In this document: piece by piece, positions 330 to 3,166 of the stretch
How positions within the stretch are numbered: the stretch's first letter is position 1
Layout of the letters: every line of letters begins with the position of its first letter
Source: a virus
Length of the DNA stretch: 12,698 nt
Virus genome (UHGV): UHGV-0271890
Direction: 5' to 3' (one strand)
Program-made: the position numbers and the translations under genes
Notes under the pieces: model-generated
What the model was told of the DNA's origin: nothing
Databases searched by the model: none
Seen by the model: only the letters and a program-made list of their open reading frames with translations

Positions 330-406
330 TGGAGGTTCAGATGGGAATCGAACCAACATTCATAGGGTTTATGAGACCCTTGCATTACCTTATCTGCGAC
401 TGAACC
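330..406 (-). tRNA. tRNA-Met (anticodon CAU; elongator vs initiator vs Ile2-lysidine not resolvable)
   Basis: Acceptor GGTTCAG/CTGAACC perfect; anticodon stem AGGGT/ACCCT with loop CTCATAA; T-loop TTCGATT with one internal T-stem mismatch; discriminator U; CCA encoded. Confidence 0.8.
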
Positions 407-411
407 ATTTT

Positions 412-487
412 TGGTAGAAGTGGAGGGATTCGAACCCATCGCCTGTCAGATTAAAAGTCTGCCGCATCACCATTCTGCTACACTTCC
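412..487 (-). tRNA. tRNA-Lys (anticodon UUU), non-canonical T-stem
   Basis: Acceptor GGAAGTG/CACTTCT (G1:U72), D-loop AATGGTGA, anticodon loop CTTTTAA on stem GCAGA/TCTGA, T-loop TTCGAAT flanked by only 3 GC pairs (ATGGG/CCCTC has two mismatches); CCA encoded. Confidence 0.65.
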
Positions 488-491
488 ATTA

Positions 492-635
492 AATTATCTT
501 TGTAGATAAGCTACCCAGACTTGCTTAAGGTCTGTAGCGATGTGCCTTTTTGGGTTTAAATCTAGAATTTACCCTTTCACCCTTTGTGGTCGCATACTCA
601 CAGGTAAGCTTAATAACTTATCTACAAAGATAATT
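492..635. repeat. 19-bp perfect inverted repeat enclosing 106 bp
   Basis: AATTATCTTTGTAGATAAG at 492-510 is the exact reverse complement of CTTATCTACAAAGATAATT at 617-635; each arm is also a local hairpin (TTATCT-NNNN-AGATAA). Confidence 0.8.
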
Positions 636-636
636 A

Positions 637-770
637 CCAGACCGTTGTTTATCATCTTAAGTGCTACCATTACACCAACTCGACATCTGCCGAGTGAAGG
701 AATCGAACCTTCGCCTTTTCTTTACCGAGAAATAGATTGTTTAAGTTTTGCTGTAAACGGTCTTCTGTAA
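637..770 (-). ncRNA. Candidate Y-RNA-like / permuted tRNA-mimic RNA
   Basis: Minus-strand order is T-arm GAAGG-TTCGATT-CCTTC (plus 696-712), then a closed 7-bp acceptor-like hairpin ACTCGGC-AGAT-GTCGAGT (plus 678-695), then a D-arm-like GTGT-AATGGTA-GCAC (plus 661-675). All sit inside an 8-bp long-range stem (plus 639-646 with 756-763). No canonical cloverleaf is possible. Confidence 0.45.
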
Positions 771-1095: not shown

Positions 1096-1172
1096 TGGCG
1101 GTTAGTCAGGGATTCGAACCCTGTGCCATTCGCTTAACAGGCGACCGCACATACCTTATGTGCTTCCTAACC
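1096..1172 (-). tRNA. tRNA-Asn (anticodon GUU)
   Basis: D-arm GCAC-ATAAGGTAT-GTGC perfect, anticodon loop CTGTTAA, T-arm CAGGG-TTCGAAT-CCCTG, acceptor GGTTAGG/ACTAACC with 7:66 G:A mismatch, discriminator G, CCA encoded. Confidence 0.78.
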
Positions 1173-1255: not shown

Positions 1256-1332
1256 TGGAGGCGGGTGCAGGAGTCGAACCTGCCGATACCATGCTAATGA
1301 GACATGTGAGACGCCCTTTCTCTATACCCGCA
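1256..1332 (-). tRNA. tRNA with CAU anticodon (second Met-type; possibly Ile2/lysidine or initiator)
   Basis: T-arm GCAGG-TTCGACT-CCTGC, acceptor 3' strand ACCCGCC pairing TGCGGGT (1:72 mismatch), anticodon stem CATGT/GCATG with loop CTCATTA (U37 unusual), CCA encoded; 5' boundary uncertain. Confidence 0.6.
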
Positions 1333-1343
1333 ATTCTTAATGA

Positions 1344-1417
1344 CCAGACCAAATCTCTTCTTTGTCCGATTTACCTTCAGATGAATAAGATTAAGTTTGC
1401 TGTAATTGGTCTTCTGT
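1344..1417 (-). ncRNA. Stem-bounded structured element, family member
   Basis: Closing stem AGACCAA/TTGGTCT (1346-1352 with 1406-1412); same conserved flanks; abuts the CCA end of tRNA-Glu. Confidence 0.4.
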
Positions 1418-1611: not shown

Positions 1612-1641
1612 ACTTTAACATTATTTTTTAGTGATTGTCAA
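1612..1641 (-). promoter_or_regulatory. Candidate promoter for the tRNA array
   Basis: On the minus strand: TTGACA (plus 1636-1641), 18-nt spacer, TAAAGT (plus 1612-1617), about 25 nt upstream of the tRNA-Pro 5' end. Confidence 0.45.
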
Positions 1642-1750: not shown

Positions 1751-3166
1751 TTACCAGATGTAACGGTCAATCATTACTGCTTTGAGCATTACGCTGATTG
1801 GGTCAAACTTCTCACCACCAAGCAGAGCTTTTAAAGTGGCTGGAGAGAAACCAGATACCATTGCTACACCGTTATCCTTAACAGATACTTCGCAAGTACC
1901 ACTACGGTTTGCTAAGTACCAGAATACCAGTTGTGGCATTTCGTATCCAGCTTTTTTGTACTTACTACGAATTGCTTCAAAGTTTGTACGACCGTTAGCT
2001 CCATCAACCTGATTGAACTCCATATCGGAGAAGATGATAAGCTTACTTGGCATATCTTTCTGAGTCAAGTTGTTTCTTTTACCTGTCTCAAGAATACGGT
2101 CAAAAGCAGCTTGTAAGTTAGTTGAGCCATATTCAACGTGTCGCATCACCTGACGATGACGGTTTCGTAAATCACCACTCAGTTCGATGAAGTGAGGGTT
2201 TGTTGAATAAACCATCAACTCATTCTTAAAGCAACCTGTATTACGTTCTGCTACATACAATGCAAGTGAAACACCAATATCAAGAGCAGTAATTGAACCA
2301 AAATTCACCCAAGACATTGAGCTTGAAACATCAGACATACACAAGATGTTTTCACCCTCTGCCATCCAGTTTGGTAGTGCTTTCCACTGCTCATTAGCAA
2401 CATCTGCATTACCATGCTTAACAGATTTAATTACATCGTATGGGTAAACAGCACCAGCATTAATCTTAGTCTCACCCTTTGATAAGGACTCGATGTAAGC
2501 TTTGTAGCGTTCTCCATCTTTACGGTTAAACAGTTTTTGGTAACGTGCAGCAGCAAGTGAAGGAATCTTACTGTAGTCAATCTTACCAAACTCATTAGCA
2601 GAGATTTTTTGCTCAACTGTATCAGATAGTGCAGACAACAGTGTGCGGTACTCTTTCTCACTCAAGTTGGCAAACTTGCAGAAACGTTTTACAAACTGCT
2701 TATGACGTGGTTTGACTCGTGGTAACCACTTAGCTGCCAAACCTGCTGTTGCAGGGTCTAGTAATGCTGCTTCTAAATGTTTGAAGGCATCTGTCTCGAA
2801 ACGAGTACCTACGAAGATTTTGAAGTCATCAAAACGACCAAGTTCTGCAATCTTATCCATAATGCGAAGAACCTGTGTAGGCTCTAAAACTTTATCTTCA
2901 ATTGCTTGAAGCAAAACAGTTCTGAAGGCTTTACGCTCACCCATACCTTCTCGTACATCTCGCATGTGAAGCAAAATACGAACTGCAACATCAACATCCT
3001 CACGCAAAGCTTTGTAGAACAGGTCTGGTAAGATTTCTACATTGCTACGGCTCGAACCAGCAGATTTGTAAAAGTCTACAAGAGCAGACATTGATGAAGT
3101 ATGGTTTACAGCACCATTTTCAGTTCGACCTGCATGAAGGTGCGCATGTTTAAATAATTCGCTCAT
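1751..3166 (-). CDS. vWA (MIDAS) domain protein, 471 aa; possibly Ro60/TROVE-like or DUF2828-like
   Basis: Long ORF with RBS; MIDAS motif D-x-S-x-S (ILCMSDVSSSMS, ~nt 2300-2340) followed by predicted alpha/beta segments; N-terminal ~270 aa likely helical. Family assignment is from memory. Confidence 0.8.
   Translation of the reverse strand: MSELFKHAHLHAGRTENGAVNHTSSMSALVDFYKSAGSSRSNVEILPDLFYKALREDVDVAVRILLHMRDVREGMGERKAFRTVLLQAIEDKVLEPTQVLRIMDKIAELGRFDDFKIFVGTRFETDAFKHLEAALLDPATAGLAAKWLPRVKPRHKQFVKRFCKFANLSEKEYRTLLSALSDTVEQKISANEFGKIDYSKIPSLAAARYQKLFNRKDGERYKAYIESLSKGETKINAGAVYPYDVIKSVKHGNADVANEQWKALPNWMAEGENILCMSDVSSSMSWVNFGSITALDIGVSLALYVAERNTGCFKNELMVYSTNPHFIELSGDLRNRHRQVMRHVEYGSTNLQAAFDRILETGKRNNLTQKDMPSKLIIFSDMEFNQVDGANGRTNFEAIRSKYKKAGYEMPQLVFWYLANRSGTCEVSVKDNGVAMVSGFSPATLKALLGGEKFDPISVMLKAVMIDRYIW

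Follow-up and report, generated by a model that had tools for sequence, protein, structure and literature searches.

A conserved tRNA-Lys(UUU) gene with an apparently bulged T-stem in a Felix O1-like phage tRNA cluster

The lysine transfer RNA (tRNA) of Escherichia coli is a target of the defence nucleases PrrC and AriB, and phages can meet such nucleases with tRNA-Lys variants of their own. The cut that AriB, the nuclease studied with PARIS, makes in E. coli tRNA-Lys falls between C40 and A41 of U36-A-A-U-C-A41 (PMC12409363). Substituting U39 so that U36-A-A-U39 is broken (Mut1) abolishes cleavage, and an A41->C change at the scissile C40-A41 step (Mut2) strongly reduces it (PMC12409363). The tRNA-Lys of phage T5 neutralises PARIS (PMC11464382, PMC12409363), and its escape has been ascribed to U39->A and A41->C, with the D-loop change U16->C (Mut3) and further unidentified distal contacts contributing (PMC11464382, PMC12409363). 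In some other phage tRNAs, mutations of the anticodon loop evade anticodon nucleases (van den Berg et al. 2023, PMC10264068). Against PrrC170, phage tRNA-Lys genes "from various genera", including that of Escherichia phage SUSP2, were cloned (Azam et al. 2024, PMC11555353); as a collective statement, phage tRNA-Lys was reported to allow the escape of T1 and T7, and E. coli tRNA-Lys, when over-expressed, to rescue poorly (PMC11555353). Here we describe a tRNA-Lys(UUU) gene in 12,698 nucleotides of the virus genome UHGV-0271890, a stretch that we call the window. An earlier note, made from the letters alone, had recognised this gene, called it structurally deviant and raised the possibility that it evades such nucleases. 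Its general premise is sound, as both T5 against PARIS and the PrrC170 panel, with an ortholog of this very gene from SUSP2, illustrate.

Over bases 200-1700, the window shares 98% identity with Escherichia phage vB_EcoM_ASO1A, and at least 80% of that interval is covered in 238 phage records. We assign the window to the region of the tRNA cluster in a Felix O1-like myovirus (Felixounavirus, Ounavirinae). ARAGORN identified nine tRNA genes in the window, all on the minus strand, and placed tRNA-Lys(UUU) exactly where the earlier note had put it, which had left the strand unstated. Its RNA is GGAAGUGUAGCAGAAUGGUGAUGCGGCAGACUUUUAAUCUGACAGGCGAUGGGUUCGAAUCCCUCCACUUCUACCA. The gene scores 54.4 bits (E 1e-9) against Rfam RF00005, whose gathering score is 29, aligns full-length to model positions 1-71 and ranks fifth among the seven above-threshold tRNAs of the cluster. 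It is annotated as tRNA-Lys(ttt) in the 98%-identical vB_EcoM_ASO1A and in Bas63. Its parts are as follows.

412-487, minus strand: tRNA-Lys(UUU) gene, 76 nucleotides including the encoded 3' CCA (ARAGORN, Rfam RF00005)
412-414, minus strand: encoded CCA end
416-487, minus strand: acceptor stem, 481-487 with 416-422; G1.U72 wobble (487/416), discriminator A73 (415)
423-440, minus strand: T-arm, G49-C65, A50-U64, bulged U, G51-C63, G52-C62, G53-C61, loop UUCGAAU (cmscan alignment)
438, minus strand: bulged pyrimidine "50a" between nucleotides 50 and 51, U in this gene
446-462, minus strand: anticodon stem-loop, G27(462):A43(446), then C28-G42, A29-U41, G30-C40, A31-U39
453-455, minus strand: anticodon UUU, inside the loop CUUUUAA (451-457)

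The predicted tRNA has the hallmarks of a bacterial elongator: G18 and G19, U33, a purine at 37, a seven-nucleotide anticodon loop and a T-loop with U54 U55 C56...A58. Its acceptor stem is paired at 7/7 positions, counting G1.U72, and its loops read AAUGGUG (D), CUUUUAA (anticodon) and UUCGAAU (T), the last being the conserved TTCGAAT that had been noticed at the outset. We consider it probable that the gene is a conserved, functional elongator tRNA-Lys(UUU) with a bulged T-stem, which supplies lysine decoding and likely brings a benefit against host defence.

The case for function begins with conservation. When 91 nucleotides around the gene were used as a query, 186 phage records matched at 99% identity or more and a further 60 at 95-99%, and the records with a near-identical gene span Felixounavirus, Mooglevirus and Suspvirus. 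In an alignment of 18 distinct cluster variants, tRNA-Lys(UUU) is the most conserved segment of the cluster, with 3/76 variable sites and a mean divergence of 0.003, compared to 72/150 (48%) and 0.079 in the adjoining spacer. Two of the variable sites, 485 and 418, turn A3-U70 into G3-C70, as in SUSP2, and the third, 438, changes the bulged U to C; the 18 variants hold no indel and no pair-breaking change in the gene. A tRNA-Lys(CUU) paralog differs from the UUU gene at 14/73 positions and breaks no pair: six differences make up three both-sided changes (2:71, 4:69 and 29:41), one lies in the anticodon, and the other seven fall in loops or at non-standard pairs. This paralog has the same T-stem, extra base included, and the same G1.U72 wobble, and a feature kept by both of two diverging paralogs is under selection and not in decay. 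From these alignments, we conclude that tRNA-Lys(UUU) is under purifying selection with compensatory evolution.

How such a tRNA would work can be sketched, although its transcription, processing, charging and defence-related benefit are steps that we infer. The gene would be transcribed from the minus strand within a phage tRNA cluster of more than 20 genes, and the product would be trimmed to a 76-nucleotide tRNA whose CCA end is already encoded. The identity nucleotides of lysyl-tRNA synthetase (LysRS) are U35 (major), U34, U36 and the discriminator A73. All of them are present, so the host LysRS would be expected to charge it. In the mature molecule, the T-stem would form a five-pair helix broken by one bulged pyrimidine after nucleotide 50, and G27:A43 would be a common soft spot atop the anticodon stem. 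The job of the tRNA would be to supply AAA and AAG decoding during infection, with a benefit that is likely twofold: it would serve heavy Lys-codon use, and it would sustain translation when PrrC- or PARIS-type nucleases destroy host tRNA-Lys, because its body differs from that of the host tRNA at 21/76 positions. Lysine codons in the window's open reading frames (ORFs) stand at 44 (AAA) and 38 (AAG), together 83 per 1000 codons. In E. coli, the figures are about 34 AAA and about 10 AAG per 1000. The window's lysine codon usage is thus roughly double that of E. coli, and the share of AAG is much higher.

The defence half of this proposal has several observations weighing against it. Positions 36-41 read UAAUCU in the phage tRNA and UAAUCA in the host. 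The phage tRNA retains U39, C40 and U16; U17 is absent, the D-loop being one nucleotide shorter. Position 41 is U and not A, and the published substitution was A->C. By the known PARIS determinants, therefore, the tRNA appears at best partly "proofed". Its anticodon loop, CUUUUAA, is identical to that of E. coli tRNA-Lys and carries none of the loop changes by which some phage tRNAs evade anticodon nucleases; because the loop is the host's, there is no obvious reason for a loop-reading PrrC to spare it. Finally, the tRNA genes of Bas63 proved mostly dispensable on four laboratory E. coli strains in a PhageMaP study, whose authors view them as a conditional toolbox (PMC11482910). Such dispensability fits a conditional role and equally a marginal one.

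On the other side, the phage group also encodes tRNA-Thr(UGU) as well as tRNA-Asn(GUU), the other PARIS targets (L001:227-302 and, on the minus strand, window 1096-1172). Both have G39 where the E. coli AriB targets have the U39 of UAAU, and by carrying G39 they complete a set of variants of all three PARIS target isoacceptors (Lys UUU, Thr UGU and Asn GUU). We regard evasion of defence nucleases by tRNA-Lys(UUU) as plausible. What stands of the original suggestion is the general possibility; its tie to the T-stem and to G27:A43 is not supported, given that non-standard 27:43 pairs are common, the loop is the host's, and U39 and U16 are kept.

The alternative that survives best, though we still think it the less likely account, is that the tRNA is functional but kept only for the lysine decoding of an AT-rich, Lys-rich phage, its odd features being neutral. 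The 44 AAA and 38 AAG per 1000 codons speak for it, as do the unchanged anticodon loop and most PARIS determinants, the mostly non-essential tRNAs of Bas63 in laboratory strains, and the fact that the phage also encodes a CUU isoacceptor, which E. coli is without. However, several gene copies already give E. coli plenty of tRNA-Lys(UUU), which makes an extra UUU tRNA the one least needed, and the body of the phage tRNA has diverged from the host's at the 21 positions already counted. Additionally, over-expressed E. coli tRNA-Lys rescued poorly from PrrC170 where phage tRNA-Lys rescued well (Azam et al., PMC11555353), which points to a qualitative difference and not to quantity alone. A plain supply role is credible nonetheless.

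The T-stem can be drawn in two registers. ARAGORN pairs AUGGG with CCCUC, giving A.C, U.U and three G-C pairs with a variable loop of six nucleotides; the description of the stem as having only three Watson-Crick pairs is correct for this canonical register. The covariance model instead pairs G49-C65 and A50-U64, bulges a single U (438) and continues with three G-C pairs, which leaves a variable loop of five nucleotides and restores five pairs. Folding had been named as a check that might turn up a canonical alternative register; the bulged register does recover the stem, but it is not canonical, since it takes a one-nucleotide bulge to reach five pairs and the stem is not uninterrupted. Energies do not favour either drawing: the nearest-neighbour values of the two registers are -15.0 and -14.4 kcal/mol, a difference of 0.6 that does not discriminate between them, and the single-sequence thermodynamic fold of tRNA-Lys(UUU) gave no cloverleaf and a stability not above shuffles (z +0.73). 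Single-sequence minimum-energy folding of this gene is uninformative. The bulged register is the minimum-energy fold of the tRNA-Lys(CUU) paralog.

Comparison among genomes was more telling. The bulge base 438, which is U here, is C in SUSP2, in some Moogle-like phages and in one CUU paralog; it is the sole unpaired variable site of the gene, and G49, A50, U64 and C65 are invariant. We scanned IMG/VR with a search anchored on the T-arm pattern GAYGGG-UUCNNNU-CCCUCC. Among the matches listed, the motif lay within an ARAGORN tRNA in 101/142 loci and occurred in at least 64 distinct tRNA sequences (28 Lys, 10 Leu and 7 Glu), which form at least 35 lineages at 80% identity (Lys 9, Leu 6, Glu 5). 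The tRNA-Lys of Klebsiella phage KB57 has an identical T-arm. Two control patterns proved of limited use: in GARGGG...CCCUCC the purine can pair in the canonical register, which makes it ambiguous, and AGYGGG...CCCCUC still keeps 4/5 canonical pairs. In a bacterial-genome sample, the motif was inside a tRNA in 13/120 hits, 0/13 of them Lys. A pattern of about 15.5 specified bases should, by our own estimate, meet several hundred chance matches in 596 Gb, and we derived no bacterial frequency because most bacterial hits are expected by chance.

Because the IMG/VR set was selected for the motif, we also examined unselected tRNAs, namely 1,216 with a recognisable T-loop, none of which matches any search pattern. 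Twelve of these keep the inner three T-stem pairs but have lost the two outer canonical ones, and in 8 of the 12 a perfect five-pair stem results from a bulge after nucleotide 50. The chance rescue rate is about 14%, so the binomial probability of 8/12 is about 4e-5. The outer pairs of the rescued tRNAs vary (C-G/G-C, G-C/C-G, G-C/U-A, U.G/G-C and G-C/A-U). Taken together, the rescues among unselected tRNAs and the freely varying middle base support a stem of two pairs, a bulge and three pairs as a rare but real, recurrent architecture.

We think it unlikely, then, that the T-stem truly consists of three G-C pairs with A.C, U.U and a six-nucleotide variable loop, or that the molecule is an 8/4 or 9/3 "allo-tRNA" with a short T-stem. 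The first is the register that ARAGORN draws, only 0.6 kcal/mol from the bulged one, and T-stems of four or three pairs with a bulged base (A51a) do exist, phages included (PMC5389517). Against the three-pair stem, a single bulged base is enough for perfect outer G-C and A-U pairs; the same position rescues comparable unselected tRNAs with different outer pairs; the middle base varies freely between U and C while G49, A50, U64 and C65 are fixed; and class I tRNAs seldom have a variable loop of six nucleotides. The 8/4 and 9/3 forms we rejected: the eighth pair would be U8 opposite C65, which makes an acceptor stem of eight or nine pairs impossible, and the U8-A9 linker is conventional.

We found no description of a T-stem bulge at nucleotide 50 in phage Lys tRNAs in the open-access literature, and the recognition of this T-stem as a recurrent bulged class, over-represented among phage Lys tRNAs, may be new. 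A bolder idea, to which we give little credence at present, is that the nucleotide-50 bulge is a distinct tRNA architecture repeatedly adopted by phages, especially for tRNA-Lys, and selected because it alters how proteins read the acceptor/T-arm branch. It might spare the tRNA from a defence nuclease with contacts beyond the anticodon arm, as inferred for AriB, or retune affinity for elongation factor Tu, with charging and decoding left intact.

Other tRNAs of these phages also have unusual stems. The tRNA-Phe(GAA) of Felix-like (L009:1138-1213) and Kolesnikvirus (L031:4825-4899) phages has the T-stem CAGGG/CCCGA, whose two outer pairs are both broken and are not rescued by a bulge; the phage subfamily thus has a further T-stem that is conserved and non-canonical. 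Within the window, a tRNA with anticodon CAU at 330-406 (minus strand) has a U.C mismatch in its T-stem, or a two-nucleotide bulge by cmscan, and a three-pair D-stem. A second tRNA with anticodon CAU, at 1256-1332 (minus strand), scores under the Rfam threshold; positions 1 and 72 are mismatched in it (U1 x C72), and its acceptor/D linker has three nucleotides.

The G:A pair that had been reported at the top of the anticodon stem is genuine: G27:A43 (462/446) is flagged as non-standard by cmscan and drawn by ARAGORN, so the stem has four standard pairs plus G:A and not five standard pairs. It is also commonplace. Among 92 Lys tRNAs in the fetched loci, position 27:43 is G:A in 16, C:A in 6, C:U in 3 and A:G in 2; it is C:U in T5, G:A in PVP-SE1 and G.U in E. 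coli. The Kolesnikvirus phage Roscha1 has a syntenic, very different tRNA-Lys(UUU) with G27:A43 and yet a canonical T-stem. Non-standard 27:43 pairs are thus common in phage Lys tRNAs, and the view of this tRNA as structurally deviant survives in part: the G:A and the unusual T-stem exist, but the former does not set it apart from other phage Lys tRNAs. The phage tRNA-Asn(GUU) has G27:A43 as well, along with a G7:A66 mismatch. In ARAGORN's drawing, the D-stem has three pairs and G13.A22, and a G26-C44 pair may stack on G27:A43; like the G1.U72 wobble, both had gone unremarked before.

A use outside translation, in which the RNA would mimic a tRNA so as to titrate or inhibit a nuclease directed at tRNA-Lys, seems very improbable. 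The PARIS authors suggest that over-expressed viral tRNAs may competitively inhibit AriB, and the cluster does hold a tRNA mimic that is not a tRNA; however, this gene has kept every translation feature (the CCA, the seven-nucleotide loop with U33 and A37, the identity nucleotides and the 12-pair acceptor/T branch), and its acceptor stem is maintained by compensatory changes. Least credible of all, and refuted by the homologs, is the notion, which the earlier note had held equally open, that this is a pseudogene, a decaying tRNA-Lys copy with disabling mutations in its T-stem and anticodon stem: the three T-stem pairs of the canonical register, G27:A43, the three standard pairs of the D-stem and a single-sequence fold no more stable than shuffles could all be read that way, but the decay that was to be looked for in homologs, as indels or a low covariance score, is absent from the 18 variants, and the score is 54.4 bits where the threshold is 29. 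No segment of the cluster is more conserved, and the 3/76 sites that vary are compensatory or at the bulge; the gene is near-identical in about 250 genomes of three genera, the T-arm is kept in a paralog that differs at 14 other positions without breaking a pair, and neither the encoded CCA nor any LysRS identity nucleotide has been lost.

Around the conserved elongator tRNA-Lys(UUU) that we favour, the cluster holds further elements.

490-637, minus strand: branched hairpin of 148 nucleotides (-48.3 kcal/mol, z -6.3)
639-767, minus strand: permuted tRNA-like RNA unit (cloverleaf fold)
781-854, 1184-1249 and 1344-1416, minus strand: three further units, with conserved ends shared with the tRNA-like unit
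1612-1641, minus strand: sigma-70-like promoter match upstream of tRNA-Pro (consensus scan, 10/12 matches)
1704-1732: second sigma-70-like promoter match (consensus scan)
1751-3166, minus strand: ORF for a protein of 471 amino acids, ortholog of Bas63 gp130, immediately upstream of the cluster

The two promoter matches are candidate starts of a polycistronic tRNA transcript that would include tRNA-Lys, and the number of sigma-70-like sites in the consensus scan was not above that in shuffles. The hairpin at 490-637 ends two nucleotides before the 5' end of tRNA-Lys. Its outer stem has about 24 pairs, with both-sided compensatory changes at five pairs in three relatives, and small hypothetical ORFs are annotated across it in some records.

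Four spacer units lie between the tRNAs, each starting on the transcribed strand with CAGAAGACC and ending with GGUCUGG. There are four exact copies of each unit-end motif, all paired, and no shuffle attains those counts. The unit at 639-767 has a T-arm (GAAGG-UUCGAUU-CCUUC), a D-arm with a GG loop, a hairpin like a variable arm, and an acceptor-like helix of seven pairs capped by a tetraloop, all set on a stem formed by the unit's two ends. It was found in 24/27 related loci as 11 variants, from which RNAalifold gives the same structure. The acceptor-like helix keeps 7/7 pairs in all variants, with both-sided changes at three pairs, and its sequence is wholly different in Moogle-like and SUSP-like phages. 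The three further units share the 5' sequence CAGAAGACC-N-ACAGCAA and the 3' sequence ACGGUCUGG; their interiors are unrelated and not tRNA-like, and their conserved part is a terminal stem with an AGA/G asymmetric loop. Such conservation of a terminal stem is what would be expected if it were a protein-binding module, and these units may be Y-RNA-like RNAs or processing signals. The T5 record AY543070 (29000-39000) lists "stable RNAs" and "tRNA-like stable RNAs with unknown functions" amid its tRNA cluster, which are analogous to the spacer units.

The ORF at 1751-3166 offers a possible partner. Its product, labelled a "hypothetical protein", carries DUF2828 and DUF7788 (Pfam) with an invariant DxSxS metal ion-dependent adhesion site (MIDAS) motif, belongs to a family of more than 2,500 relatives, mostly phage, and is listed by PHROGs as an RNA-binding protein. 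Pfam reported only DUF names for it and not TROVE, and a PDB sequence search gave no match. An alignment-based AlphaFold model reached a predicted local distance difference test (pLDDT) score of 89.8 (a single-sequence model, at pLDDT 45, was unusable), and the top 11 PDB structure hits of the alignment-based model are Ro60/TROVE proteins, with E values from 2e-8 to 1e-6. Judging by this model, the ORF encodes a Ro60-fold protein. Its ortholog gp130 of Bas63 is reported to counter Ppl defence (PhageMaP, PMC11482910). Bacterial Ro60 proteins bind Y RNAs, the YrlA class of which contains a tRNA-like module, and YrlA-type Y RNAs have been reported beside Ro60 genes in bacteria and phages (PMC4201824). 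None of our units matched a Y-RNA or YrlA family in Rfam, even at E up to 10, and they resemble the published Rsr-binding motif only loosely. By analogy with the architecture of YrlA-type Y RNAs, the unit at 639-767 is a candidate phage Y RNA.

Part of this picture was known already, since the tRNA-Lys(UUU) gene is widely annotated and its ortholog has been used experimentally. In practice, this is a gene to treat as a working phage tRNA, with one base bulged in drawings of its T-stem, and the recurrence of the bulged T-arm, biased towards Lys, raises a structural question that is small but testable. Felix O1-like phages are used for typing Salmonella and E. coli and in phage therapy, hence the relevance of counter-defence: they carry all three PARIS-targeted isoacceptors, and against PrrC one ortholog has been put to use already. 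The more interesting by-product may be the Ro60-fold gene adjoining a conserved permuted tRNA-like RNA, which gives a concrete candidate for the phage Y RNAs only guessed at in the Bas63 study (PMC11482910).

Set against known tRNAs, the gene has a structural parallel in the (8/4) tRNA-Sec and selC* tRNA-Cys (Mukai et al. 2017, PMC5389517), which likewise have one nucleotide extra on the 5' side of the T-stem, within an acceptor/T branch of 12 pairs. They differ in having an eight-pair acceptor stem, a four-pair T-stem and the bulge at 51a, whereas the Felix-type tRNA is a 7/5 tRNA-Lys with its bulge after nucleotide 50. The A51a-type bulge was dispensable for function in the one tested case (PMC5389517).

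The target of PrrC and AriB in the host, E. coli tRNA-Lys(UUU), is identical at 55/76 positions. The two share the loop CUUUUAA, A73, the T-loop UUCGAAU, U16, U39, C40 and a weak 27:43 pair (G.U in E. coli), and the host tRNA differs in its T-stem (GCAGG/CCUGC), G1-C72, a four-pair D-stem, an eight-nucleotide D-loop that includes U17, and A41. T5 tRNA-Lys(UUU) likewise comes from a large tRNA cluster and combines a host-identical anticodon loop and a non-standard 27:43 pair (C:U) with a body diverged from the host's. However, it is identical to the Felix-type tRNA at only 50/76 positions and has a canonical five-pair T-stem, ACAGG/CCUGU, without a bulge. It also carries the changes U39->A, A41->C and U16->C, where the Felix-type tRNA has U41 and the unchanged U39 and U16.

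The closest relatives share the bulge. The Felixounavirus tRNA-Lys(CUU) paralog (L001:473-548, just outside the window) is identical at 62/76 positions, with the bulged T-stem, G1.U72 and the A73-CCA end in common; it differs in its anticodon (CUU), in G27.U43 in place of G:A, in its T-loop (UUCAAUU) and in U29-A41, so that its positions 36-41, UAAUCA, equal the host AriB site. Closest of all is the ortholog, tRNA-Lys(UUU) of Escherichia phage SUSP2 (Suspvirus, Ounavirinae; pBR-phiLys47, PMC11555353), which is identical at 73/76 positions. It departs from the present gene in G3-C70 for A3-U70 and in a bulged C for U, and it shares with it an identical D-arm, an anticodon stem-loop with G27:A43, and the bulged T-arm.

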